In this document: in pieces, positions 5,145-41,041 of the stretch
Layout of the letters: each line of letters starts with the position of its first letter
Numbering within the stretch: position 1 is the stretch's first letter
DNA from: a virus
Taxonomy: Duplodnaviria > Caudoviricetes
IMG/VR virus record: IMGVR_UViG_3300021405_000018
Coordinates: 1 to 52,064 of that record
Reading direction: 5' to 3' (one strand)
DNA length: 52,064 nt
The notes under the pieces: model-generated
Told to the model about the DNA's origin: nothing
What the model saw: the letters and a program-made list of their open reading frames with translations, nothing else
Database searches by the model: none
Position numbers and translations under genes: made by a program

Positions 5145-5627
5145 ATGGGCGCTCGTGACTACTACAAGAAGGGTGACTGGAACGCTATCTGCTATGTCTG
5201 CGGCTTCAAGCGCAAGGCCTCGGAGATGAAGCTCCGGTGGGATGGCGTCTATGTGTGCCACGAGGACTGGGAGATTCGCCAGCCACAGGACTTCGTGCGG
5301 GGCATCCCCGACGAGCAGCCACTGCCGTGGACGCAGCCCGAGAGTGTGCCTGACGCCTTCAGCGGCCCCATCGTCTATCCCTCGACCAACGTTGTCGTCG
5401 GCAATCCCACGATCTTCGTCAACTCGACCCCTCAGGTATTAGGGGTCAATTACACGATCGCTCTTCCTATCGGCAGTGTGACCTTCATCACCACCTACGC
5501 CCCCGGCTCCGTAATCTCCTGGTCCGGTCAGTGGCTCGATAATGCAGGCCGCACCACTACCTACACCAACGCTTTCCTGTACCTGTGGGCTGACCTCCAG
5601 AGTACCTATCAAATCTACGGGACCTGA
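5145..5627 (+). CDS. Protein with N-terminal Zn-finger-like motif
   Basis: AICYVCGFK...WDG..VC..DWE.RQPQDFVRG; precedes the head-tail adaptor. Confidence 0.7.
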   Translation: MGARDYYKKGDWNAICYVCGFKRKASEMKLRWDGVYVCHEDWEIRQPQDFVRGIPDEQPLPWTQPESVPDAFSGPIVYPSTNVVVGNPTIFVNSTPQVLGVNYTIALPIGSVTFITTYAPGSVISWSGQWLDNAGRTTTYTNAFLYLWADLQSTYQIYGT

Positions 5628-6361: not shown

Positions 6362-9222
6362 TGGCCGACGCTAAGCCTATTCGTATCCCCCTCATTGAGC
6401 CGCTAGAGACCCGGGATACGACCACCCTCTACGATGCGAAGGGTGTCAACACCGTAACGGACAAGACACCCCGAGGCATGCTGATGGCCCGTAAGCGGCC
6501 AGGGCTGGTGTTTGCCTCGCAGGGTGTGGTAGGTACTGGTCAGGGCATCACCAACTACCAGAACCACCTCTACTCCATCAGTGGGGATTACCTCAACGTC
6601 CTCAGTGGGACGAGTGCGTCGCTGACGGCCCTCCTCTCAACGAACTCGGCGGCCTTCGGCGACCGGGTCGGTCCCATGACGGTGGGCTTCAATGGCTACC
6701 TCTATGTCATGGGCGGCACCACTAGCGGCGGCACTGCCCTCAATGATGTGTGGAGGAGTGCGGACGGCATCAACTGGGGGGAGATTACTACTAGTGCGCC
6801 GTGGGCTGCACGCTCCAAGGGGCAGGCACTGGTGTTCAACAACAAGCTCTACATCATGGGCGGTGCTGCTAGTGCGACGGGCACTCACTATGGGGATGTG
6901 TGGAGTACTTCCGATGGCATTAACTGGACACAGCTTAATGCTGCTGCGTGGCCGGGGCGTCGGCGCTTTGGTGCAACCGTAGCCAACAACCTCATGTGGA
7001 TTGCAGGAGGGGCTGGCCCAACAGACACGCTGAGCCCCGATGGTCTCTACCCCAACACAAAGTACAACGATGTCTGGTACAGCAGCAACGGGTCTGCGTG
7101 GACGCAAGCCACCGGCCTGATGGGTGCCCCGTGGATTGCACGGAGCGACTTCGCATTCTATGGCGTAGGCACATCCCTCTATGTCTGCGGAGGCCTTCTG
7201 ATTGATGCCTTCTCCAATGCAACCTCAGACCTATGGACTGACAACGGAACTGGAGGCACAACATGGTCTCTCGTAAGCGCAAACCCCTTTGGAGTAGCCT
7301 CGTCGGGACTATGGCCAATCGCCGCATTCGATTCCGCCGGTCAAGGCTTCTCGATACCGAGTGCATCGATTACGCTGACTGGTGGCAATGGTTCTGGTGC
7401 TGCGGCCTTCGGCTTTGTAGACGTAGATGATGACCCTGACACTGACTTCGAAGGTGGGCAGTATGTTGAGGTGACCTTCAGTAATGTGGGATCAGGTTAT
7501 ACGATCCCACCGACGATCAGCTTCAATACGACCAACGAGGGCTTCAATGTAGCCGCCTATGCGATGCTCAACGGCACGTCCAACGGTGGCTCGAAGGCCA
7601 TGCGTGTCGCCGTCCTCAACGGGATAACGTACGTGCTGGAGGTCGAAGCAACCGGCACCTATGACCACGTCCTCTGGTCCACAACCAACGGCACCACGTT
7701 CACGAACACGAACACGAACTTCTCCGCAGGCTGGACGCCTCGCGACGGGGAGTTCTTCGCCTATGGCAACCTCTGGTTCACTAGCGGCCTGGACGGCAGC
7801 AACATCTACTACAACGATGTGTGGCACATCACCATCGGTGGGGGATCGTTCGCCCTCAACCCAACCGTACCTAACCTGTTCTACCACTTCAATCAGACCT
7901 CCTCGACAGTAACGAGCCCCTTGCTAGTCTTCAAGTCCACTGCGGACCTGTATGACTTCAATGCCAATCTCTCACTGTTGACGAAGCTGACTACGGTTGC
8001 TAACTACCCTACTACTACGGTGCCAGGACTGGTCGTGCTGGACACCTACTTCTTCGTCATGGACCCGCAAGGGCGCATCTGGAATTCGAACATCAACGAC
8101 CCTACAACGTGGGTCGCTACGCAGGTTATCTCGATGGAGAACGAGCCGAACGGCGGGGTGGCAATTGCCAAGCTCGGGCCGTTCGTTGTGGCCTTCGGAC
8201 AATGGACTACGGAGTTCTTCTACGACAACGGGATTGCGCCCCCGGCGAGTCCGCTCGCCCCTGAATCATCCCTGCCGTTCGACGTAGGTTGCGTCAATGG
8301 GGAAAGCGTGCGTGAGATGCAAGGCAACATCATCTGGATCGGTACGACCAAGATCGAAGGTCAGGGCGTCTACATGTTCCAGAACTACACCCCCGTCAGG
8401 ATCAGTACACCCTTTGTCGATCGTATCTTGCAGGCTGACCCCCTCACTAACATCTCGGCCCTCAACCTGGATGCTTCAGGCTACTCGATCTACATCCTGA
8501 CGCTCCACACCTCCAACATCACACTGGTGTATAACTTCGCCAATCAGGTATGGGACGTATGGACTAGTACGACAGCCAACCAGACTGTCGCCATCCAGGG
8601 TCTGACGAGCGACCCCTATGGGCTGGTGACGGCTAGTGCAACAGGACATGGCCTCTCCGATGGCGACCCTGTACTGGTTGCGGGCGCATCTAATGCTGGG
8701 TATAACGGCTTCCAGAATGCACAGGTCGTAAGCCCGAATGTGTTCCAGTACGTGCTGACGGCGAACCCCGGCACCAATGCCGGTACGGCGACGCTGACGA
8801 ACTACACGGAGAACTGCTTTAGCCCGATTGCCTCGGCACAAATCCTGGATATCGACTACCTGCAAGACCCCACGAATGGGCAAATCTATACGCAGGGCAT
8901 CCTGAACTACAACGACCTGGGCAACCCGATCAATGTGCGGCTGGTGACCGAACGGTGGGATGGTGACACGAGCGAGTGGAAGTTGTGCAGGCGCATCTCC
9001 CTGCTAGGAGACATCGTACAGTCGAACTGCATGATCGCCTACACCGACAACGATTACCAGTCCTACTCCGCGTTCCGCACGATGGCCCTAAACGATGGTC
9101 AGCGGGCTACGGTGGCGGGCGCAGGACGCTTTAGGCGCAGGGCATTCCAGATTCGCCACACCGCATTCACACCCTTCAGGGCAGCGTTCCTGGAGCTGGA
9201 AGTAGTTAAAGGAGGTTTCTGA
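6361..9222 (+). CDS. Tail nozzle / packaged-DNA stabilisation protein (P22 gp10-like) with Kelch-like insertion
   Basis: KRPGL N-terminus, LDTYFFV, IWNSNINDPTTW, AFGQWTTEFFYD, GC, TLVYNF, GRFRRRAF C-terminus; repeated LYVMGG...NDVW.S.DG..W units. Confidence 0.8.
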   Translation: MADAKPIRIPLIEPLETRDTTTLYDAKGVNTVTDKTPRGMLMARKRPGLVFASQGVVGTGQGITNYQNHLYSISGDYLNVLSGTSASLTALLSTNSAAFGDRVGPMTVGFNGYLYVMGGTTSGGTALNDVWRSADGINWGEITTSAPWAARSKGQALVFNNKLYIMGGAASATGTHYGDVWSTSDGINWTQLNAAAWPGRRRFGATVANNLMWIAGGAGPTDTLSPDGLYPNTKYNDVWYSSNGSAWTQATGLMGAPWIARSDFAFYGVGTSLYVCGGLLIDAFSNATSDLWTDNGTGGTTWSLVSANPFGVASSGLWPIAAFDSAGQGFSIPSASITLTGGNGSGAAAFGFVDVDDDPDTDFEGGQYVEVTFSNVGSGYTIPPTISFNTTNEGFNVAAYAMLNGTSNGGSKAMRVAVLNGITYVLEVEATGTYDHVLWSTTNGTTFTNTNTNFSAGWTPRDGEFFAYGNLWFTSGLDGSNIYYNDVWHITIGGGSFALNPTVPNLFYHFNQTSSTVTSPLLVFKSTADLYDFNANLSLLTKLTTVANYPTTTVPGLVVLDTYFFVMDPQGRIWNSNINDPTTWVATQVISMENEPNGGVAIAKLGPFVVAFGQWTTEFFYDNGIAPPASPLAPESSLPFDVGCVNGESVREMQGNIIWIGTTKIEGQGVYMFQNYTPVRISTPFVDRILQADPLTNISALNLDASGYSIYILTLHTSNITLVYNFANQVWDVWTSTTANQTVAIQGLTSDPYGLVTASATGHGLSDGDPVLVAGASNAGYNGFQNAQVVSPNVFQYVLTANPGTNAGTATLTNYTENCFSPIASAQILDIDYLQDPTNGQIYTQGILNYNDLGNPINVRLVTERWDGDTSEWKLCRRISLLGDIVQSNCMIAYTDNDYQSYSAFRTMALNDGQRATVAGAGRFRRRAFQIRHTAFTPFRAAFLELEVVKGGF

Positions 9223-9725
9223 TGGAAGCCATTACAGTTGAGCCCTTCACCAGGGAACTAGCTACAGAGATTACACCCCTTGGGCAGGAAGCCTGGAACG
9301 AGTGCTCTGTGATAAAGAAGGATACATGCGCCTACCACGGGCAGCGCGGCCTTCCTATCGACCCCAACATCGAGCAGTACCTTCGTCTGGCAGACAATGG
9401 TGCCCTGGTAGCTATGACACTACGTATAGATGGTGTCCTGCACGGCTATGCCCTTATGGTCCTCTACTATAGCCTGCACCTCAAGAATGAGCTATGCGGG
9501 AATGTGGACACCTTCTACATCCAGCCAGACTATCGCCGCTTCATGCCAAGGTTCATGTCGATGGTCGAGGACGAGTTCCGGTCACGTAACGTAAGTATTG
9601 TGGGCTGGCCTGTAACCATGACAGGCAAGCTGTTCGACATCCTCAAGAAGCGCGGGTATATCGCAGACGATGTCATTATGGAACTGAAGCTGAAAGACCT
9701 TCCGAGGGGTGAATCATGTGTGTAG
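9222..9725 (+). CDS. GNAT-fold acetyltransferase-like protein
   Basis: DGVLHGY...DTFYIQPDYR...KRGY; usual slot between nozzle and ejection genes. Confidence 0.7.
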   Translation: MEAITVEPFTRELATEITPLGQEAWNECSVIKKDTCAYHGQRGLPIDPNIEQYLRLADNGALVAMTLRIDGVLHGYALMVLYYSLHLKNELCGNVDTFYIQPDYRRFMPRFMSMVEDEFRSRNVSIVGWPVTMTGKLFDILKKRGYIADDVIMELKLKDLPRGESCV

Positions 9726-32514: not shown

Positions 32515-33000
32515 CTAGTACTCCGGGTCCGGGAAGCAGTCCTCAGTGAGGACACTACTGATCCGGTTGATCACGTCCTCAGGGGTGGTGTAGTTTTCGT
32601 GTGGCATGAACAGATACTCAGCTGCAAACTCATCCAGGTCATAGAACTCAGTCAGGGCGGACCAACCCCTCTCATCGTTGAACATTACACGCCCGTCCTT
32701 CTCTGTCATGAACCCACGCTCCCGGAACCATGGGTCGAGACCAGCATAGCCAGTGGCGCATGCAGTACAACCACAGTTGTGTGGGATCAGGAGGAACTGT
32801 TCCTTCTCCATTGCGGCATAGAACTTGTCGGAGGCTTCCTTGGCCTCGCCGCCAGTGTAGCGTCCAAGGCCGATGTTCTCGATGTCACCATCGCCGTAGT
32901 CGACGTTGACGCCAACGAAGGTTTCGAGGCTGAAATTCAGCTTGTACCTGATCACGTCCTCCAGGACGCGTACGGTTTGCTCCAGTGCTTCACGGTTCAT
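32515..33000 (-). CDS. Hypothetical protein
   Basis: CGCTACA.GY...P.F motif; GGAG RBS. Confidence 0.6.
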   Translation of the reverse strand: MNREALEQTVRVLEDVIRYKLNFSLETFVGVNVDYGDGDIENIGLGRYTGGEAKEASDKFYAAMEKEQFLLIPHNCGCTACATGYAGLDPWFRERGFMTEKDGRVMFNDERGWSALTEFYDLDEFAAEYLFMPHENYTTPEDVINRISSVLTEDCFPDPEY

Positions 33001-33149
33001 ACTAGTGCTCCAAGGAATCCATTGAAAATGCTCAGGGCAATAATGCCTACCCACCACAGGCGTTTATCCCCACCTACCAGGGCTTCACCAAAGATACCCC
33101 AGGCACTGCCTGAAGCAATGCACCATACCATCAGGAGAACGAAGTTCAT
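32997..33149 (-). CDS. Small 2-TM protein (50 aa)
   Basis: ATGA overlaps at both ends; hydrophobic. Confidence 0.5.
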   Translation of the reverse strand: MNFVLLMVWCIASGSAWGIFGEALVGGDKRLWWVGIIALSIFNGFLGALV

Positions 33150-33325
33150 TTCTTCCTTCCTTTGCCCATGCGAATGCGGCGTTCACGTTCAATGACGGCG
33201 GCGAGGTGTGCAGCACTCGCCTCCTTGCTGCGCTTCTTGTAGTGCGGACGGTCCTGCGGGGCCAAGTTCATGAACCCCGAGGCCGCTTGCCTACGTCGAG
33301 CTTTTGCCTGCTGGGTTGCTGACAT
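33146..33325 (-). CDS. Small basic protein
   Basis: GGAGG RBS; Arg/Lys-rich. Confidence 0.5.
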   Translation of the reverse strand: MSATQQAKARRRQAASGFMNLAPQDRPHYKKRSKEASAAHLAAVIERERRIRMGKGRKK

Positions 33326-33494
33326 CCTTACCCTCCATAAAGGCGTTGAAGGCGTCCTTGCACGATGGGCAGAGGTGCTTTTCCTCGTTCCACTCGAAGA
33401 GATAGAAGGATGTCCACCGTAGGCGAGCAAACCAGCCTACATCGGTCTTTTCACCACATCTATCACAGGTGTAGACCTGTCTCGTAGCCATCAT
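33291..33494 (-). CDS. Zn-ribbon protein
   Basis: CDRC...LCPSC. Confidence 0.65.
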   Translation of the reverse strand: MMATRQVYTCDRCGEKTDVGWFARLRWTSFYLFEWNEEKHLCPSCKDAFNAFMEGKDVSNPAGKSST

Positions 33495-34339
33495 TTTCCC
33501 ACCTGAATCAGGGGGATAGCGCCCCCAAGCATGTATTGCGGATACTCCCCATTCCACTTCTCGACCTTCAGCTTCTCGATGATGGCAGGGTTGGCTTCAA
33601 GCGACTTGCCGAGGAGGTCGTTGGCCTGTGCCTGATTACGCGCAGCTTCGAGGTCGGCCTGACTCTGGATGACGCGCTTCTGCGAGTCGAACTGGGTCTG
33701 CTTCAGCTCGTTCTGTGCCTGGATGGACTTCTGCTGGGCACTCGCTGCTGCCTCGATGGCGTCGTTGTATTGCTGACTGAAGTCAAGGTTGAGCAGGGCT
33801 GTGCTGACGACGGTGATGCCGTAGGGCGCTAGGCGGGACTTGAGGTTATCGGTGATTTTCTGGTTCACCGAGTCCCGTTGGGTCACTAGCTGGTTCGTGT
33901 CGAACTGCGAGATGGTTGCCTTCGCAACGTCCACCATGGTCGGCTGGATGATCCGGTTGGCAGGGTCGTTGGAGAGGTCCCGATAGACACTGACGGCGGC
34001 AGCAGGGTTGACGCGGTAGTTCAGGGCGAAGTCCACCGTGACGACCTGTTTGTCGTTACTGGCTGCTGCCAGCTTCTCGTCCACACGGGCCGTACCTACA
34101 TAGACGGGGTGGACCGTATCGCGTACAGGCATGCGGAAGTGCAGTCCCGCAGGCATCACCTCGGGGGATAGGCCGTCGAAGTTCTGCACGACGCCCACAT
34201 AACCGGGCTCCACGGTGACGACCGGGCGCATCGAGTACCCCATGATGAGGAGGATCAGGACAATGATGGTCCCGACCGTCCACTTGACTACCTTCAGGAA
34301 TGATGCATCATCCCTACTCAACTCTTGCTGCTGTGCCAT
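33491..34339 (-). CDS. SPFH/prohibitin (band 7) membrane protein
   Basis: N-terminal TM, V.PG.VGV, GLHF..P, coiled coil, EKWNG..P. Confidence 0.9.
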   Translation of the reverse strand: MAQQQELSRDDASFLKVVKWTVGTIIVLILLIMGYSMRPVVTVEPGYVGVVQNFDGLSPEVMPAGLHFRMPVRDTVHPVYVGTARVDEKLAAASNDKQVVTVDFALNYRVNPAAAVSVYRDLSNDPANRIIQPTMVDVAKATISQFDTNQLVTQRDSVNQKITDNLKSRLAPYGITVVSTALLNLDFSQQYNDAIEAAASAQQKSIQAQNELKQTQFDSQKRVIQSQADLEAARNQAQANDLLGKSLEANPAIIEKLKVEKWNGEYPQYMLGGAIPLIQVGK

Positions 34340-34363
34340 GACTTACTCCTTAACTCAATTGAA

Positions 34364-34448
34364 TGGTCCCCCACCCAGGAATCGAACCTGGCTGGCCAGA
34401 GGCAACGGGGTTACGGCCCGCCCCACATCCATAGTGGTCTAATGAGGG
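34364..34448 (-). tRNA. tRNA-Tyr(GUA), non-canonical
   Basis: Acceptor CCCTCAT/GTGGGGG + A + CCA; anticodon arm GCGGG-CCGTAAC-CCCGT; long variable arm; T arm CCAGG-TTCGATT-CCTGG; 85 nt. Confidence 0.8.
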
Positions 34449-34455
34449 TACTGCT

Positions 34456-34719
34456 TCAGTTTATGGTCTTGCCGGTATCAACCACTATGGATGTGGGATG
34501 CATTTCCTCCTTGCAGTAGCGGTCATAGTACATTGCATTGAGGACGACTAGCTGGCGTTCAAGGTGACCGGGTTGTGCCTCCTCCAGTGCGTTGCTACGA
34601 CGCACGGTGGTGGCGATGCCACTCTCGTCCGAGATACTGATTGCAAGGCTCATACCCTTGCTTTCGACGGCGGCCAGCATCTCAACAATCTTCGTCAGGA
34701 TTTCCTGAGGCTTCGACAT
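34456..34719 (-). CDS. Hypothetical protein
   Basis: AGGAG RBS. Confidence 0.55.
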   Translation of the reverse strand: MSKPQEILTKIVEMLAAVESKGMSLAISISDESGIATTVRRSNALEEAQPGHLERQLVVLNAMYYDRYCKEEMHPTSIVVDTGKTIN

Positions 34720-34948
34720 CTTGCTTCTCCTTTCCACAGTAGGTCTTGCGCAGGAGGTTCCACGAGCCTTTCTCGTCTAGCCTCCATAGTTCACGGGCAC
34801 TGCCGACTGCGCGGTCGAATGTGCATGTCACGTTGTAGTGCGACTCATCGATGTCGATGGTGATGCCGTTGCTGATGCACTTGTAGAGGGTTGGACCGGG
34901 GCAGCGGATTGCCTTGCCGTCGATGATGAGGGTGCTTCCAGCGATCAT
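34682..34948 (-). CDS. Hypothetical protein
   Basis: AGGAG RBS. Confidence 0.5.
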   Translation of the reverse strand: MIAGSTLIIDGKAIRCPGPTLYKCISNGITIDIDESHYNVTCTFDRAVGSARELWRLDEKGSWNLLRKTYCGKEKQDVEASGNPDEDC

Positions 34949-34949
34949 G

Positions 34950-35096
34950 TCAGGCTCCTACGAACGGGCGTGCGATGTTGGCGAGGAAGAGGGTTATGCA
35001 TAAGGCTAGGCCAACGAAGTCGTCGTCCCTGAGACTGTTATAGCCGCACCAGCCAACAGTTCCGCCAACGATCATACTGAACAGGATGCTCATCAT
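34950..35096 (-). CDS. Small membrane protein (48 aa)
   Basis: Coupled start; two hydrophobic segments. Confidence 0.45.
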   Translation of the reverse strand: MMSILFSMIVGGTVGWCGYNSLRDDDFVGLALCITLFLANIARPFVGA

Positions 35097-35287
35097 GCTG
35101 CGTTCCTCAACAGGGTTACGACATCGGACAGGGTGCCCTTGGCAAGCACGGGGCGTTCCTCACATTCGAGGTAGATGTCACAACAGCCATCGTTATCTTC
35201 CGAGGCGGCGACGAGCGATACGAGGTCCCGGTTGATCCACACGTCATTGTGCGCTTCCGAGGGTGCTTCAATCTTAACGAGATGCAT
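35093..35287 (-). CDS. Small hypothetical protein
   Basis: GGAGG RBS; VWIN.D.V..V pattern. Confidence 0.6.
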   Translation of the reverse strand: MHLVKIEAPSEAHNDVWINRDLVSLVAASEDNDGCCDIYLECEERPVLAKGTLSDVVTLLRNAA

Positions 35288-35288
35288 G

Positions 35289-35519
35289 TTAGTCCTCCAG
35301 ACCGACAAGGTAATCAATACTGCATTCAAGTACTATAGCCATCTTGATGATGGATCGCAAGCTGGGGTAAACCCCACGATTCTCGTAGGCCGTGATCTGG
35401 CATTGATGAAGGAAGCATTCGGCTGCAAACCTCTCAATGCCGTAACCACGGCGCATACGCTCGGCCTTGAGGCGGGTCCCAAGAGCCCCAAAGGCCTCCT
35501 TACGTTTATACGGCTTCAC
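35289..35519 (-). CDS. XRE-family HTH protein
   Basis: LGTRLK..R...G...YE....PS......A.VL.CSIDYLVG; GTGA-coupled to Ro60. Confidence 0.8.
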   Translation of the reverse strand: MKPYKRKEAFGALGTRLKAERMRRGYGIERFAAECFLHQCQITAYENRGVYPSLRSIIKMAIVLECSIDYLVGLED

Positions 35520-36964
35520 GCCTGGGCCTCCACAGCCCGGATGAAGTCAACTGAGGCTTCGCTGAAGCCATCAATATGCGTCCACTTTCCGTAACCAATC
35601 CCGTTCTTTGCGCTTGCCACGTTGATGAGGTATGCCCGACCACATCCAGGTTCCGCCAGCTTCGGGGATTGCGCATGATCAACAGCACAATCCTGCTCGT
35701 CCGTGACAACGACGATGCGGTCATACATTTCACGCTCGTTGATGAAGTCGAGCATGGGTTTGAGGAAGATGCCTCCTCCACCAAGCACTCTGTAGGACTC
35801 ATGGAATGCTGCAACGAGAGCCATTCCGTGCCTAGCTGGTACAGATTTCGTGGCGTGTGTTCGTGTGCGGTCGCTTCCTGCTGTTGCATAGACTACTGCC
35901 TCCTCACATTGTTCGCGCAGGATTGCGCACAGGGCGGCACCAGCGTCGATACGATTCAGGGTGGACTTGCTCGACAGCATGCTGCCCATCGAGCCCGACA
36001 CGTCGAGGACGATCAGCGTCCTCCCTTCAAGTTTCGGACCGTCCTGGAGTCCTTGCACCATCGCACCATCGAGCACAGCTTCGAACTGAGGGGCCTCGCG
36101 GGCTGCGCTGATGAAACGGAACGGGAGGACCTTGCTTGCGCCTTTACGGGCCTGGATGGCTTGTTCAATGAGGCCACGGTCCACCCCCAGTTCAGTCATC
36201 TTGCGCAGGTTCCGAAGGAGGGCCATATAGGGCAGCTTCCCCTCACGCAACATCACTTCGAATACATCTTTACTGCCACCTTCATCCCCCTTAGCTGCGC
36301 TAAGGCCCACTTCCCATGTCTCGGGCGTCTTGAGGGTGCGGTCAACGATGCGCCGATACAACTGTTCTTCAGGTGTAGTGCCCGCAGTGCTGCTCAACCG
36401 GTTACCAATGCCTTGCGCACGTTGATGCTTCGTGCCGTAGGCACCACTGACCGACTTCGGCTTCCCATGCACCATGAACAGAACGTCGCGCAGCTTGATA
36501 GGCGAGTCGGCCTTCTCCCATTTCGAGAACTGATACTCATCGAACTTGCGGAAGGCACGGGCAAGGCCGACCTTAACCTGCTTCGCAAGGGGACACTTAC
36601 CGTCCTTCCAGTAGATGGCCATGAATTCGGCTATCTCGTCGGGCCGTTGGATCACCCTAGCGAGGGTATCTCCAACCAGTTTGCCTCTCGCACATCGAGC
36701 AAGCGCCCGCACGAGCAGCAACGGTACGTGCCGAAGGTGTTGCTGTTCCCTTGCCTCAATGGCGAGTTGTGCAACAGTTGCAGGGTCGCATGCTGGCACC
36801 AGCTCTGCGATCCGACTAGCGATTGAGCCGCCTGATTCATACGCTTCGCCCTCCCAAAGCATGCACGACAGCACCGTGCGGCGTAGTTCTTCAATCGGGG
36901 TAAGGTGGAAGGCCTCTGCGCCGCCATGGGTACGAGGGCCTTCTGGATGGTTGGTACTGGACAT
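35516..36964 (-). CDS. rsr: Ro60/Rsr RNA-binding protein (TROVE + vWA)
   Basis: TROVE motifs LR.VP, RPDE..E, FDEYQ..KW, LRDVL...H.KP, TWE..LS, YMALLRNLR, LPFRF..A; vWA MIDAS DVSGSM, VTDEQ, GFSE; RBS AGGAG. Confidence 0.93.
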   Translation of the reverse strand: MSSTNHPEGPRTHGGAEAFHLTPIEELRRTVLSCMLWEGEAYESGGSIASRIAELVPACDPATVAQLAIEAREQQHLRHVPLLLVRALARCARGKLVGDTLARVIQRPDEIAEFMAIYWKDGKCPLAKQVKVGLARAFRKFDEYQFSKWEKADSPIKLRDVLFMVHGKPKSVSGAYGTKHQRAQGIGNRLSSTAGTTPEEQLYRRIVDRTLKTPETWEVGLSAAKGDEGGSKDVFEVMLREGKLPYMALLRNLRKMTELGVDRGLIEQAIQARKGASKVLPFRFISAAREAPQFEAVLDGAMVQGLQDGPKLEGRTLIVLDVSGSMGSMLSSKSTLNRIDAGAALCAILREQCEEAVVYATAGSDRTRTHATKSVPARHGMALVAAFHESYRVLGGGGIFLKPMLDFINEREMYDRIVVVTDEQDCAVDHAQSPKLAEPGCGRAYLINVASAKNGIGYGKWTHIDGFSEASVDFIRAVEAQA

Positions 36965-37001
36965 TACTGGTACTCCTAACTAACTTCAAGCCCCCGAAGG
37001 G

Positions 37002-37108
37002 GAGGGAACAGACATACAGGGACAAGACCTCATAAGAGGCCCCAGGATTCGAACCTGAACGCACCCGAAGGTGAGTATCAACCGATGTAACCCTGTACTA
37101 CACCACTT
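37002..37108 (-). ncRNA. Y-RNA-like gene 4 (T-arm-containing)
   Basis: AGTGGTGTAG-TACAGGG-TTACATCG...CCCTGTA-TGTCTGTTCCCT; internal CACC-TTCG-GGTG, CAGG-TTCGAAT-CCTG and GGCCTC/GAGGTC hairpins. Confidence 0.75.
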
Positions 37109-37287
37109 AAACTTGACTGGCGACGCCTTACGGGCGTCAATCGAGCGAAGATTTACCGTTTGCTTGAGTCTACGCTGTTGACCCACTCGACACGTAACGG
37201 CTTGTGGCTAGGGTATCGGCTTCCCCTTTGCAACTCTGCGCCCCGACACAAGGGCCTACCGAGAGTACGACGGTACTGCTGCAAATC

Positions 37288-37357
37288 TTTGGCGGGAACA
37301 AACGAGGACGGAAGGATTTCGACCTAAACGAAGTAACCGTACTCTTCACCACGCAAA
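37288..37357 (-). ncRNA. Y-RNA-like gene 3 (minimal)
   Basis: GCGTGGTGAAG-AGTACGG-TTACTTCG...CCGTCCTC-GTTTGTTCCCGC. Confidence 0.7.
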
Positions 37358-37395
37358 CCTTGGCCTCATTGCGGGGAGGTCCATCCTCGTAAGAC

Positions 37396-37455
37396 AAAAA
37401 GGAGTCACCAGGGCAGAGAGTTGGGGAAGACCTGCCACTGAGTCGTGTGACTCCG
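37396..37455 (-). other. Long hairpin followed by a T-tract (structured RNA or terminator)
   Basis: GGAGTCAC..CAG.GGCAG...CTGCC-CTG-GTGACTCC-TTTTT. Confidence 0.45.
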
Positions 37456-37461
37456 TAAAAC

Positions 37462-37530
37462 TGGCGGGACCCCACGGAATTGAACCGGGGTAGGAGATTC
37501 GCGAAAATGCTCCTAGTGCCAACACGTCCC
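37462..37530 (-). ncRNA. tRNA-like element ending in CCA (pseudo-tRNA)
   Basis: GGGAC/GTCCC-G-CCA, T loop GGTTCAATTCC, mini D hairpin GTG-TTGG-CAC, arm TAGGAG-13nt-CTCCTA. Confidence 0.6.
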
Positions 37531-37534
37531 AGTG

Positions 37535-37662
37535 TTGCGGCAACAAGCGATACGACGAACGTAAGTGCTCTAACCAACTGAGCTACATCCTTTCGGATGA
37601 CGGGACTCGAACCCGCGACCTCTCGCTTAGCAGGCGAAGTATGTCGTATCTTCAGCACGCAA
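37535..37662 (-). ncRNA. yrlA: YrlA-type Y RNA with circularly permuted tRNA domain (Y-RNA-like gene 2)
   Basis: Terminal stem GCGTGCTGAAGATACGAC/GTCGTATCGCTTGTTGCCGC; T arm GCGGGTTCGAGTCCCGT, then closed acceptor CATCC-GAAA-GGATG, then D arm TAGCTCAGTTGGTTAGAGCA. Confidence 0.88.
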
Positions 37663-37667
37663 ACTGG

Positions 37668-37763
37668 TTGGGGCAACAAGCAAGACGGCAGACAGTCGTA
37701 GCCAGGACTAGCCTGACATACGCCCGAATGGTGAGCGATGTAAGCCATCTCTTCAGCACCCAA
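37668..37763 (-). ncRNA. Y-RNA-like gene 1
   Basis: GGGTGCTGAAG-AGATGGC-TTACATCG...GCCGTCT-TGCTTGTTGCCCC. Confidence 0.75.
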
Positions 37764-38010
37764 AGGTGCAGGGTCTTTGCACGAGCCCACATTAGCACAT
37801 CCCCGCGAGGTCGGATGCCTTGTGGTACAAAGGCCCTGCCCTTTGAAGGCTGGGGACCCTTCCTGTTATCGAGTGGAAGGAACAAGCATCTCGCAAGCGC
37901 CGAGTGTAGGTGTCATCCACTCAGGCTTGAAGGGTGGGGCAACGGTTCGTTCCACTGGCCTGTTAGCGGGACGGGGGTACCATAGCAGTCAGCAGCGTTG
38001 CCCCATAAAG

Positions 38011-38418
38011 CTATGCTGCGTCCGCGTCATGTTCCGGGTAGTTCAGTACGATGGGATGCGCATTGAGATACTGCTCAATCGCCCGCGTCACCACTTCCCC
38101 AAGCACTCCAGTCCGAATGACCCCACCTCCACGATGCAACAGATACGACTGTAGCCTGTCATGGACTGCTTCGTCAACCGAAACATGAATGTACTTCCTC
38201 CCCTTCGCTGCTGGGTGCCCCATGTGTAACTCCCTTTGTGCCTCTAGCACGTTGATGCGACAGTGCAGTCGCGTAAACTCTTTCCAGTGATCGGAGACGA
38301 CATCCCTTGATGGACATGTCCGAACACTGTACCCACTTGCCGCCTTCAGGGCTAGGTCCATCGCTGCCTTGAGTGCGACCAGCTCCTCCGGCGACACGTT
38401 AAGCAGCATCCGCAGCAC
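38011..38418 (-). CDS. Protein with C-terminal ribbon-helix-helix-like segment (possible internal start at 38223)
   Basis: KYIHVSVDEAVHDRL...EVVTRAIEQYL. Confidence 0.5.
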   Translation of the reverse strand: MLRMLLNVSPEELVALKAAMDLALKAASGYSVRTCPSRDVVSDHWKEFTRLHCRINVLEAQRELHMGHPAAKGRKYIHVSVDEAVHDRLQSYLLHRGGGVIRTGVLGEVVTRAIEQYLNAHPIVLNYPEHDADAA

Positions 38419-38899
38419 GCTCCTCTTCTACCGGAGCAAGCAGTCCGTCGAGGACGCTGTCGCCGTCCGTCTCCCCCTTGTACTTCGCAATGAGAGCCGA
38501 GATACGCTGGGTGCCACGCAGCTTCGCCTGATCACCCTTGGACATGGCCTTGACAACCCCATCCGCTACTGCCGGTTCGATGCCCTTGAGCTCTGCCAGC
38601 GCACGTACCAGCGGAGTGTACTTAGGACCACCCTCGCCCAATAGGGACCATTTGCCCTCATCAGACGCATCGACAAGCGCATCGAACTTCTGGCATGCCT
38701 TGTCGGCATCGTCCGCACTGTTAATCGCGGCGAGCGCCTTCGACTTCGCGCCTGTGCTCGCATACCGATGGTAGAGGTCGTGGTCGGGGGCAACTGCCCA
38801 CACTCGTGTCTGTCCATTCGTGAATGTGAAGGTATGTGTGAATCCGCCATCGGCGTGGTGTTCTGTACTTACCTCAACTTTTGCCTGCTTTGCTGCCAT
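38399..38899 (-). CDS. Hypothetical protein
   Basis: GGAGG RBS; 166 aa. Confidence 0.7.
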   Translation of the reverse strand: MAAKQAKVEVSTEHHADGGFTHTFTFTNGQTRVWAVAPDHDLYHRYASTGAKSKALAAINSADDADKACQKFDALVDASDEGKWSLLGEGGPKYTPLVRALAELKGIEPAVADGVVKAMSKGDQAKLRGTQRISALIAKYKGETDGDSVLDGLLAPVEEERAADAA

Positions 38900-38900
38900 T

Positions 38901-39125
38901 TCATGCCTCCACTGGTTGTTTGCTTAACCACAAGCGTAACGTGTTGGTGCTACTGTAGTACCTTCCGTCAACCCATCCTACCCCTAAAGCATCTGCCATC
39001 AGGGTTACGAGATCTTTACGTTCTTGAACCTTTGCCTCGTCGGCGATGGTTATGAGAGCCTTCCCATGCTTCTGCAGGTCCCGTACCACGGTACAGGCAA
39101 CTACCACATCTTCAAGCTTTACCAT
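38901..39125 (-). CDS. Hypothetical protein
   Basis: AGGAG RBS. Confidence 0.5.
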   Translation of the reverse strand: MVKLEDVVVACTVVRDLQKHGKALITIADEAKVQERKDLVTLMADALGVGWVDGRYYSSTNTLRLWLSKQPVEA

Positions 39126-39603
39126 TCTGCTGCTCCTGCACTAACTTTTCCTGATATGCCCGCTCTAGGGCATCTCCTGACATGTCCTTGGCAATTTCCA
39201 GGGGATCAGCACTGTGCTTCTCCCGTTGCCACTCATCCCCATCTATTGCTGCCCTTTGCACGGCTACCTCAGGGGACATTACCCGATTCGAGATAGTCAA
39301 CATATCCTTACGTACCTTGAACACAAAGTACTTACTAGCCTTCTGTAAAGGATCGCCCAACGCATTGACCTGAAGCGACTCCTTCAAGCGCCATAGACGG
39401 TACTTCGTGTTCATGGCCTGATTGTCAGTGTCGAAGCGCATGGTTAGTTGACCGTGATCTGCGACATACTGAAGTGTCTCGAAGTCAATCGGCAGGAAGC
39501 GATCTAGTGCTGGCGGCTTCTTTGGGCTTCCCATCTTAAGTCTCCTGCTGTGTTGCCCCGTCACCTTTGAATCAAGTGTAGTAGAGAATTTCTTGTCTGT
39601 CAA
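39112..39603 (-). CDS. Hypothetical protein
   Basis: 163 aa ORF, first gene left of the AT-rich region. Confidence 0.55.
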   Translation of the reverse strand: MTDKKFSTTLDSKVTGQHSRRLKMGSPKKPPALDRFLPIDFETLQYVADHGQLTMRFDTDNQAMNTKYRLWRLKESLQVNALGDPLQKASKYFVFKVRKDMLTISNRVMSPEVAVQRAAIDGDEWQREKHSADPLEIAKDMSGDALERAYQEKLVQEQQNGKA

Positions 39604-39735
39604 TGGATTTTTTCAATGGGGCGCACTAGTTCGATAGATGCATTTATGAATTACTGCAATTACTGCGATGATACTATGAAACTATGACACTCAGCACCCC
39701 CCCTATACCCGGGTAGGGACACCTCCAAAAATATT

Positions 39736-39764
39736 TTTATATTTTTTCATTTACCCCTTGACAA
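39736..39764 (-). promoter_or_regulatory. Possible overlapping leftward sigma70-like promoter
   Basis: TTGTCA-17 bp-TATAAA sharing the palindromic CTTGACAAG. Confidence 0.4.
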
Positions 39765-39786
39765 GTAGAAAAAGGTGTGCTACTCT
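39758..39786 (+). promoter_or_regulatory. Sigma70-like promoter (rightward)
   Basis: TTGACA-17 bp-TACTCT with extended -10 TG and an AT-rich UP-like tract. Confidence 0.6.
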
Positions 39787-40022
39787 CCTTATATACAGTA
39801 GGAAATGTAGGAAGACCCATTGGTTATTCACTTTTAAATATTCAACAGCGGTGTAGTTGTAAAAATACAACAAAAATGGATGGGTAGGTCAGGGTATAGC
39901 CCTAGCCCGAGTGTCATAGTTTTATAGTTTCATTGCAGAAATTCTCTAGTTTTTTCCGAAATTTTCGTTTTCCCCCCAGGTTTGGCACCCTTTCAGGTGC
40001 CTACCCGTCAAAACAGCCTCCC

Positions 40023-40196
40023 CTAGATACCAAACAGCCGCCCAAGGCTTCCGAGCGAAGCCAGCAGTACCACAGTACCCACGACGAGGCCGACCTCCTG
40101 TACAGGCCCGTAGCGGCCCGAGCGGTACCTCATTTCGATCCAGGCAAGCAGCGAGAGCGCTGCCGCCACCCAACCTATCAGTTCCAGCACTCTCAT
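40023..40196 (-). CDS. Small 2-TM protein (57 aa)
   Basis: AGGAG RBS; MRVLELIGWVAAALSLLAW... Confidence 0.55.
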   Translation of the reverse strand: MRVLELIGWVAAALSLLAWIEMRYRSGRYGPVQEVGLVVGTVVLLASLGSLGRLFGI

Positions 40197-40205
40197 AGCC
40201 GTCTC

Positions 40206-40394
40206 CTATTCAGCCACCCTGTAGTGGCACAGTCCGTTGTTGATTAGCGCCTGAGCCATCCGGCCATACGCGCCCTGAAGAGCCCACACCTGTCCTGAGT
40301 CGATCAGTTCCTGGAACAGTTCGACCGTTGCGTCCTCGTCCAGGTCTCCACTCTCCCAGGCAATCATCCTTCCGAGTTGATCACGGCGTTCCAC
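40206..40394 (-). CDS. Small conserved-type early protein
   Basis: IAWESG.L.......LFQ.LID.G..W.LQG.YGR.A; GGAGG RBS. Confidence 0.65.
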   Translation of the reverse strand: MERRDQLGRMIAWESGDLDEDATVELFQELIDSGQVWALQGAYGRMAQALINNGLCHYRVAE

Positions 40395-40587
40395 GAGGCA
40401 CCTCCAGTTGTTCCAGTGTTGCCAGCTCGGCGAGCAGGCACTCGTAATCGACGGCAGTGAATGAGTGGATCGTTTCCAGAATCCACGGCTCAACCGGAGT
40501 CAATCCCTTGAAGGGGTAGACCAGTCCATCGGCGATCACGAGATAGTCGCCGCCCACTACACCCTGATACTCGATGTTTGCCATCAT
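40381..40587 (-). CDS. Hypothetical protein
   Basis: GAGG RBS; coupled. Confidence 0.5.
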   Translation of the reverse strand: MMANIEYQGVVGGDYLVIADGLVYPFKGLTPVEPWILETIHSFTAVDYECLLAELATLEQLEVPRGTP

Positions 40588-40742
40588 TTCACCTCATGAG
40601 TGATCACAACGTAGCAGTCAGGAAAGCGCCGCAGGGCCTCGCTGAGTGCTGTCGCCTCATCGCTCGCAGTGATGCGCACTTTGAACGATCCCTTTACTCC
40701 TGGCGTAGCCAGTTCCACGTCCCACCTCTTAACTGCTGTCAT
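40584..40742 (-). CDS. Hypothetical protein (52 aa)
   Basis: TGATG coupling; MTAVKRWDVELATPGVKGSFKVRITA... Confidence 0.5.
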   Translation of the reverse strand: MTAVKRWDVELATPGVKGSFKVRITASDEATALSEALRRFPDCYVVITHEVK

Positions 40743-41041
40743 CACATACTCCTTCCAAAGTCCTTGTGGGCGTCCCAGTCAATTGCTTCAGGGTCGAGTC
40801 CTGCGATATGTCCCGTATCCTTCTCCCCACTTGCAGCGGGCGCAGCCTCGATGTGCTCAAGGTACGCGGGCGTTGTGTTCCATGAGCCATCGTCCATTGC
40901 ACCCTTGACGCCATCGTCACGTAGTACCCATACATGGGTGCGGCTCGTCTTTGCGACCGTACCTGTGTAGGGGCCTTTCAGAAGCCCGCGCTCCTTGTCG
41001 GCCCGTGTCCTTACGCGGTCGCCGACCTTAAACTCCGACAT
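40742..41041 (-). CDS. SH3-like early protein with shared C-terminal motif
   Basis: FKVGDRV start; ends PEAIDWDAHKDFGRSM; GGAGG RBS. Confidence 0.65.
   Translation of the reverse strand: MSEFKVGDRVRTRADKERGLLKGPYTGTVAKTSRTHVWVLRDDGVKGAMDDGSWNTTPAYLEHIEAAPAASGEKDTGHIAGLDPEAIDWDAHKDFGRSM

Follow-up and report, generated by a model that had tools for sequence, protein, structure and literature searches.

Four probable phage Y RNAs with a shared docking stem and variable tips in a row upstream of a Ro60 orthologue gene

The RNAs most similar to those considered here are YrlA and YrlB of Salmonella Typhimurium and Mycobacterium smegmatis and the mycobacteriophage YrlA (Rfam RF02553), which are encoded beside rsr, the gene of the Ro60 orthologue, on the same strand. 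In an alignment of seven YrlA sequences, a GNCGAA(N)G motif is followed, after 7–9 nt, by GUUAC, GUUAU or CUAC, then by a stem-loop and a T arm; the tetramer, named YUAY, is assigned to the beginning of the V loop (PMC4201824), and in the crystal structure of Salmonella YrlA its conserved UA introduces a kink of ~30 degrees where the tRNA-like domain joins the Rsr module (bioRxiv 10.1101/312249). Phage YrlAs, several per phage, appear in the 2014 supplement, where Table S2 has three for Caulobacter phage CcrColossus (PMC4201824). A Deinococcus Y RNA tethers PNPase (PMC4201824). In vitro, the two Y-like RNAs of Thermus phage phiLo bind the phage Ro60 as well as the PNPase of the host, and slow the latter (PMC12135203). 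In Yrn1 and Yrn2 of Deinococcus radiodurans, as well as in metazoan Y RNAs, the docking helix is bulged and conserved in both strands, and a modular handle with an effector loop recurs in several paralogues per genome. A modular picture of scaffold and effector is already accepted for Y RNAs (PMC4201824; bioRxiv 10.1101/312249).

We analysed the whole of a virus record of 52,064 bases, hereinafter the window, which is a complete phage genome (rated 100% complete). The window encodes a Ro60 orthologue (Rsr) with a TROVE match in Pfam of 56.4 bits (cut-off 23) and a vWA_Ro60 match of 26.4 bits, below the cut-off of 27.7; the nearest solved chains by sequence are those of the Thermus phage phiLo Ro60 (9KOP/9L5Y, E = 2e-19), and D321, S323 and S325 of the DxSxS motif are invariant in an alignment of 5 relatives. 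The ~1 kb upstream of rsr (36965-38010) contains no credible gene. An open reading frame for 206 aa in this region (37170-37790, −) was rejected as a gene because its product has no Pfam match and it overlaps RNAs that covary. These RNAs, four in number (c1 to c4; Table 1), all lie on the minus strand, the same as rsr, 38–802 nt upstream of it and thus well inside the ~4 kb around the Ro60 gene in which Y RNAs are looked for. We estimate a probability of roughly 0.82 that they form a row of phage Y RNAs leading toward rsr, with a shared docking stem and variable tips. Placement beside rsr on the same strand, a GNCGAA-type motif near the 5' end and several copies per locus, phages included, are all shared with the YrlA systems, and a phage Ro60 gene with Y-like RNAs just upstream is shared with phiLo (PMC12135203). 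Downstream of rsr, on the same strand (33491-34448, −), are the genes for an SPFH/Band 7 protein (104 bits) and a tRNA-Tyr.

Table 1 Coordinates and elements of the four RNAs, rsr and adjacent candidate signals
Feature	Position	Strand	Elements	Heptamer	Basis
rsr, phage Ro60 orthologue	35516..36964	−	482 aa; TROVE ring and vWA with DxSxS		Pfam and nearest structures
Hairpin between c1 and the rsr ribosome-binding site	36991..37002	−	CCCC-UUCG-GGGG		read from sequence
c1	36995..37113	−	V-type hairpin CACC-UUCG-GGUG (37073-62); T arm CAGG-TTCGAAT-CCTG (37057-43); acceptor-like hairpin (37041-26); without D arm	37089-83	
c2, minimal	37285..37359	−	scaffold and single hairpin UUCG/UUUAGGU/CGAA (37332-18)	37335-29	
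Terminator-like hairpin between the tRNA-like element and c2	37396..37454	−	long hairpin, then UUUUU		fold
tRNA-like element directly 3' of c3	37462..37530	−	compact cloverleaf; encoded CCA; no anticodon loop		fold
c3, YrlA-type	37531..37664	−	V hairpin UUCGC/CUGCUAA/GCGAG (37638-22); V loop AGGUC; T arm (37616-00); acceptor-like hairpin (37598-87); UA; D arm (37583-67)	37641-35	
c4, reduced	37663..37766	−	hairpins CGCUC/ACCAUUC/GGGCG (37737-21) and GUCAGG/CUAGU/CCUGGC (37717-01)	37742-36	

The copies share their 5' part in register; for this part, a 24-nt pattern (GTGSTGWAGW-N6-WTACWTCG) was scanned with up to 2 mismatches against dinucleotide shuffles as the control. Four matches were found (37106-37083, 37352-37329, 37658-37635 and 37759-37736), all on the minus strand and without mismatches, where 0.04 were expected and the maximum in 100 shuffles was 1. 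By contrast with the full pattern, the heptamer UAC[AU]UCG that ends it is common in the window by itself (24 matches vs. 8.15 expected), so that only its fixed register is meaningful. The docking motif occurs in the window as GGUGAAG, GGUGUAG and GCUGAAG, i.e. with U at the third base where the bacterial GNCGAAN0-1G has C; the exact GGCGAAG is present in modules of relatives.

The four RNAs escape existing family models at their cut-offs. At the gathering score, Rfam matched nothing in the whole window. With a permissive threshold, c3 matches the YrlA family RF02553 at 43.5 bits (E = 4.9e-8), short of the gathering score of 69, whereas c1, c2 and c4 have no match to it at E ≤ 10; no Rfam family is reached at its gathering score by any of the four, and the Rfam Y_RNA family gives no match at E ≤ 10. 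Relatives score 32.8–55.9 bits against RF02553. ARAGORN finds no tRNA within 36965-38010, its sole call in the window being the tRNA-Tyr (34364-34448). A covariance model built from an alignment of 29 short relatives scores c2 at 66.7 bits (c2 being itself a training row), c4 at 38.5 and c1 at 33.6; over the window, this model detects no fifth copy and misses c3 (3.5 bits). A weak stray match of the model at 9244-9286 (−; 11.4 bits, E = 0.48) lacks the upper stem and is probably due to chance. Folding energies of the single sequences are close to those of shuffles (z from −0.7 to −1.7) and, with z values this small, individual folds give no support on their own.

A search with the Rsr protein yielded 4 viral loci, and a search with an alignment of five proteins yielded 170 viral stretches encoding Rsr relatives, of which the best 80 were used; because 3 of these duplicate earlier loci, the survey comprised 81 related phage loci and the window. 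The loci were scanned for modules by a procedure blind to the heptamer, whereby G[GC][TC]GN[AT](A)GN and a 6-nt strand had to be followed, within 8–300 nt, by a partner strand pairing at 5 or more of the 6 positions and then by 5 nt and [TA]GTT[CG]C[CT]. Across the loci, 165 matches lay on the same strand as rsr and 15 on the other. Once each match had been assigned its nearest partner, and the 3 repeated loci and all sequence duplicates had been discarded, there were 126 modules, among them the window's four copies and two stray window matches.

Pairing of the 5' and 3' ends into a two-part scaffold stem is supported by covariation in both short and long copies. In the alignment of 29 short copies, 17 named pairs are paired in 89.7% of cells, compared with 62.7% in shuffles and 44–52% when the partners are slid, and the covariation score of 0.741 (0.215 in shuffles) was reached by none of 500 shuffles. 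The pairing of the upper stem was itself a selection criterion, so that the statistics of this stem are partly circular; in the lower stem, which lies outside the selection criteria, 8 of the 9 pairs changed on both sides. Among the long copies, 41 of 47 were aligned (six were dropped for lack of a clear D arm or for odd lengths), with c3 as the first row. All six helices are supported: across 36 pairs, 91.0% of cells are paired overall (lower stem 90.0%, upper stem 90.5%, V 71.7%, T 99.5%, acceptor-like 96.8% and D 100%), with 13 compensatory cells at each of two V hairpin pairs. Furthermore, in the modules that carry the junction motif in its looser form (see below), base 2 of the 5' motif faces the [CG] of GUU[CG]C as G-C in 97 cases and as C-G in 5, with no mismatch among 102, and this G-C/C-G exchange explains the GCUG...UUGCC form of c3 and c4. 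The lower stem of c1 is weak (in the model alignment, 4 of its pairs are non-standard). In the window, the docking helix can be recognised by both of its strands; according to PMC4201824, this holds for the Deinococcus and metazoan RNAs and not for those of Salmonella and M. smegmatis. With both stems covarying around inserts that vary, the Y RNA assignment of the original prediction is supported, for four copies at the coordinates first given, as is its proposal of a fixed scaffold with variable cargo, which is the accepted model for Y RNAs and not a new inference.

The tips themselves appear to represent different degrees of reduction of one arrangement. The tip of c3, the only copy with a full permuted tRNA-like domain, would be a complete, circularly permuted tRNA mimic with its parts ordered as in YrlA: YUAY comes first, the V hairpin and the T arm follow, and the closed acceptor-like stem is succeeded by UA and the D arm. 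That of c1 would differ by the loss of the D arm, and resembles the second Y RNA of M. smegmatis, YrlB, which has the T arm only (PMC4201824). Yrn1 of D. radiodurans has its tRNA-like parts in a different orientation (PMC4201824). The tip of c4 may be a further reduced version of the c1 type: read by eye, its insert is like that of c1, with a T-like loop two bases shorter and without the acceptor-like hairpin, and the CAGG-CTAGT-CCTG hairpin previously noted as different is found at 37715-03. Finally, c2 would retain the first hairpin only; its upper-stem strands are 25 nt apart, 17 of these nt lying after the conserved TTACTTCG, which agrees with its earlier description as a short copy, and it is similar to Yrl1 and Yrl2 of phiLo, small stem-bulge-stem RNAs without a full tRNA mimic, although the phiLo locus has two RNAs, defined by a CGAA motif, and the window has four (PMC12135203). 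Neither the D arm nor the T arm is intact in c2 or c4. Effector modules were expected to be swapped or deleted among the copies; deletion or reduction is what we observe, and swapping is not.

Given T and D arms of the tRNA type, the elements might be regarded as genes or pseudogenes of a phage tRNA cluster, the more so as c3 has a weak match to the Rfam tRNA family (21 bits, E = 0.19, cut-off 29) and real tRNA genes are interleaved with the RNAs in relatives (e.g. a tRNA-Pro in the phage compared below). This explanation is hardly credible: the T arm comes ahead of the D arm, the acceptor-like stem is of the closed kind, ARAGORN calls no tRNA among the copies, and a Ro60-type stem is common to all of them, next to rsr.

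Comparison with a phage whose Rsr is 72% identical to that of the window (L006) shows which tips have been retained. The YrlA-type copy of L006 is 80% identical to c3 over 133 nt, and its T-arm-only copy is 79% identical to c1 over 82 nt. The acceptor-like hairpins of c1 and its orthologue differ in sequence with pairing intact in both, and the UUCG hairpin of c1 is conserved. For c1, then, the T arm, the following hairpin and the absence of a D arm are as originally described; the UUCG hairpin, described as an extra one, is not extra, as it fills the place of the V arm and is conserved in L006. For c2 and c4, no orthologue was found in L006, the match being confined to the scaffold, and the spacers between the copies have no match there. 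Two spacers considered as further elements (37109-37250 and 37764-37900) were rejected, as they fold no better than shuffles and show no conservation in L006. Between the Y RNA copies of L006 there are tRNA-like elements in addition to the tRNA-Pro.

The heptamer marks the point where the constant and the variable parts meet. Among the 126 modules, the upper stem runs straight into NTAC[AT]TC in 88, or in 102 if the looser NTNCNTC is accepted. The heptamer is thus conserved in homologues; its absence from them was one of the two outcomes by which the original prediction was to be refuted. By length of the insert, the strict motif is present in 33 of 40 modules with up to 35 nt, 19 of 25 with 36–80 nt, 36 of 51 with 81–105 nt and none of the 10 with longer inserts; the latter look like false matches of the scanner. 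In the window, [UA]UAC is found 7 nt downstream of the final G in the docking motif, the spacing by which its UAC equates to the UAY of YUAY, and the order of elements in the published YrlA alignment implies that the heptamer comprises YUAY and the beginning of the V stem. The heptamer is therefore, to judge by its register, not new, its UAC being the already described YUAY/UA-kink motif of YrlA RNAs; the tetramer reads UUAC in c1, c2 and c4, and in c3 it starts with a purine instead (AUAC). Rfam's model places the heptamer elsewhere: cmscan aligns it with positions 8–13 rather than with CUAc. We read this placement as a slip by one helix, because the alignments skip the GNYGWAG motif and contain many non-standard pairs, which is an argument and not a test. 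Since the motif persists in copies without a tRNA-like domain, the comparison shows that the YUAY kink motif is part of the handle–tip junction and not of the tRNA-like domain.

What follows YUAY distinguishes these phages from the described YrlAs. Junction positions 5–7 are T in 100, T in 108 and C in 108 of the 126 modules, i.e. as conserved as UAC, and this near-invariant UUC of the clade is absent from the seven published YrlA sequences. From junction positions 4–7, a hairpin of at least 4 bp can start in 58 of the 102 modules with the loose motif (mean of 38 and maximum of 46 in shuffles), and in 31 of these 102 the loop has 7 nt (mean of 6.3 and maximum of 13), an approximately five-fold excess over shuffles; the side of the loop facing UUC is A-rich. 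When the hairpin was forced to start at position 5, a requirement later relaxed, only 20 of the 102 had at least 4 bp with a 7-nt loop. In the predicted folds of the window's RNAs, the UCG end of the heptamer is paired in such a local hairpin in c2, c3 and c4, and c1 has none. Thus, the earlier statement that the heptamer is kept in all four copies is confirmed, and the statement that it is unpaired holds only in part. We also considered whether CUUC might pair with the GAAG in the 5' motif and rejected this for lack of covariation, given that the commonest 5' motif, GGUGUAGA (18 of 102), occurs with CUUC unchanged.

One possible reading of these data is that a protein (Rsr itself, the host PNPase through its KH/S1 domains, or some other partner) recognises the heptamer by its sequence, chiefly by the invariant UUC, in which case the heptamer would be more than a hinge and a stem strand. 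The UUC is as conserved as UAC even though it falls within a hairpin where structure alone would permit change; published YrlAs carry other letters at these positions; among 36 short copies, only 12 have a hairpin of at least 4 bp at this place, so that the motif may sit in a loop there; and the 3' side of the loop is rich in A. However, in the map of phiLo Ro60 with Yrl2, only the stem-bulge with CGAA is resolved at the protein (PMC12135203), and the partner of UUC in long copies is GAG, GGG or GAA at the matching columns. We consider such a contact a tentative explanation with a minor but appreciable likelihood.

Another reading takes the first hairpin as a mimic of an anticodon arm, mostly of tRNAs that read ANN codons, serving as a decoy, sensor or substrate for tRNA-directed enzymes on Ro60; anticodon nucleases and modification enzymes would be the candidate targets. 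With a wider range of starts, a stem of at least 4 bp with a 7-nt loop is present in 44 of the 102 modules, and 31 of these 44 loops combine U at position 2 with a purine at position 6 (in 21 of the 31, position 5 is U as well), the commonest triplets being GCU (6), GUU (4), UGU (4) and CAU (3). The excess of 7-nt loops over shuffles fits the same idea, as does the fact that one such RNA was called a tRNA-Asn by ARAGORN and another a tRNA-Thr in GenBank. Yet, more than half of the modules have no such loop, and in the window the full fit is found in c3 only: c2 carries G at position 6 and lacks U at position 5, c4 lacks U at position 2, and no such loop exists in c1. Moreover, the resemblance could have been inherited from an ancestral tRNA, in line with the model of a dimeric-tRNA origin (cited in bioRxiv 10.1101/312249). 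This reading therefore appears quite improbable. A broader version, which we also regard as improbable if slightly less remote, is that, in this clade of phages and soil bacteria, the UUAC-UUC junction together with the anticodon-arm-like hairpin, and not the tRNA elbow, is the constant element on the effector side, surviving in minimal Y RNAs from which the T, D and acceptor-like parts are gone, and the primary working element, which could provide a second protein contact or a decoy or sensor for enzymes acting on ANN-reading tRNAs. If true, the Y RNAs described here would be living intermediates of the proposed descent from a tRNA dimer, with the anticodon arm, V loop and T arm of the first tRNA still in order.

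The mechanism that we favour is a row of Y RNAs with one docking stem and different tips. In each RNA, the ends would pair into the two-part stem, an internal loop of which would carry the Ro60-docking motif opposite ..CUUGUUSCC; docking by Ro60 is what we infer from the motif, the gene neighbourhood and the literature. The docking stem would be the constant handle and the tip the variable effector. The heptamer would lie exactly where handle and tip meet, with [AU]UCG as the 5' strand of the V hairpin, and may act both as a hinge and as the beginning of a helix, determining the way in which the tip is held out from Ro60; it is retained even where the tRNA-like part has been lost. By analogy with Deinococcus and Thermus phage phiLo, the resulting particles probably dock the host PNPase or tRNA-binding proteins and, as the tips differ, one Ro60 could gain different partners.

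A less favourable view of the locus is that c2 and c4 are decaying duplicates with no function of their own, c3 and perhaps c1 being the only working RNAs. Apart from the common scaffold, neither has an orthologue in L006, the T-like loop of c4 is two bases short and its acceptor-like hairpin is missing, and its ACCAUUC loop lacks the usual U at the second position. Nonetheless, both have their scaffold pairs complete, with a compensated C-G pair among those of c4; minimal copies turn up regularly as a class, with inserts of up to 35 nt in 40 of the 126 modules and the junction motif in 33 of these 40; the lower stem covaries across 29 minimal copies; and there are two short copies in each of the cultured Xanthomonas phages 10KY502B and Olaya. 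In addition, contigs from RNA libraries, which show neither strand nor ends nor true transcription, span c4 and most of c2. Decay of c2 and c4 is thus unlikely in our judgement.

These contigs come from Logan assemblies of 13 sequencing runs that matched the window, three of which are RNA libraries from three studies (X3, X8 and X12). They cover 36853-37087, 37098-37349 (2 differences) and 37528-37746 in X3, 37521-37746 in X8 and 37352-37502 in X12, and are otherwise identical to the window; carry-over of DNA is possible in such libraries. The contig end at 37746, shared by X3 and X8, falls inside c4. Stretches that are uncovered (33000-36200 in X3 and 38340-41000 in all three RNA runs) carry no weight, and neither do the runs with small shares (X9–X11 and X13).

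As for transcription signals, a scan for promoter and terminator consensus sequences revealed no enrichment (1 found vs. 0.6 expected and 0 vs. 1.4 expected, respectively). Directly 3' of c3, the fold of 37533-37462 (−26.7 kcal/mol, z = −1.55) contains a tRNA-like cloverleaf spanning 37531-37465, with a D stem of 3 bp and a long, closed 'anticodon' stem ending in a tetraloop; it is called neither by ARAGORN nor by the Rfam tRNA model at E ≤ 10, and it may be a processing signal. Comparable tRNA-like elements adjoin Y RNAs at L005 6303-6379, in another viral locus, and at L006 ~1783-1870. The long hairpin with a U run that comes next was not called as a terminator by the consensus scan, and a comparable hairpin and U run follows the YrlA-type copy of L006 (2134-2180). 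The presence of this arrangement after the YrlA-type copy in both phages suggests two transcription units, one with c4, c3 and the tRNA-like element and the other with c2, c1 and rsr. Between c1 and rsr, the fold of 37010-36985 pairs a stem (37009-04/36995-90) that overlaps the CCCC-UUCG-GGGG hairpin and is insignificant alone.

Overall, this is a known Y RNA system, and the row of copies is itself ordinary. At least one module with the loose motif was found in 54 of the 82 sources (one in 25, two in 16, three in 8, four in 4 and five in 1), these counts being lower bounds because the scanner misses variants, and rows of two to five copies are common among the surveyed loci. The cultured Xanthomonas phages 10KY502B and Olaya have five such RNAs each, upstream of an rsr-like gene annotated as 'hypothetical protein'; the scanner caught three in each and the other two were read by eye. 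A pattern scan of bacterial genomes gave at least 122 loci, with rsr within 2.5 kb in 16 (Acidobacteriota, Bradyrhizobium, Hyphomonadaceae and others); the other 106 were set aside as probably due to chance or lacking flanking sequence. Compared with YrlA, the window copies fall below the Rfam cut-off and have U in place of C at the third base of the motif, and their clade has the near-invariant UUC after YUAY and minimal copies with one hairpin. What is new is a matter of degree, namely that UUAC-UUC marks the junction across the clade, that there is a minimal class with a single hairpin and that both docking strands are retained.

These results bear on annotation, given that Rfam at the gathering score and ARAGORN miss all four RNAs and that relatives are mislabelled as tRNA-Asn or tRNA-Thr. 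The family data define a compact, ~60-nt minimal class of Y RNAs and, together with the junction motif, this class offers simple test objects for what the tips of bacterial and phage Y RNAs bind. The 'tRNA-Asn' called by ARAGORN at L004 3320-3395 is actually part of a Y RNA, the V hairpin having been read as an anticodon arm, and the 'tRNA-Thr' of GenBank at L086 3122-3189, in Xanthomonas phage 10KY502B, is likewise part of a Y RNA. Two further elements were observed in L005, a viral contig: just downstream of rsr (~5470-5620), there is a tRNA-like gene whose acceptor, D and T arms are normal, the last two being separated by a long insertion, and behind a tRNA cluster, at 8994-9377, there is a match to bacterial RNase P RNA class A (55 bits), truncated at the end of the locus.
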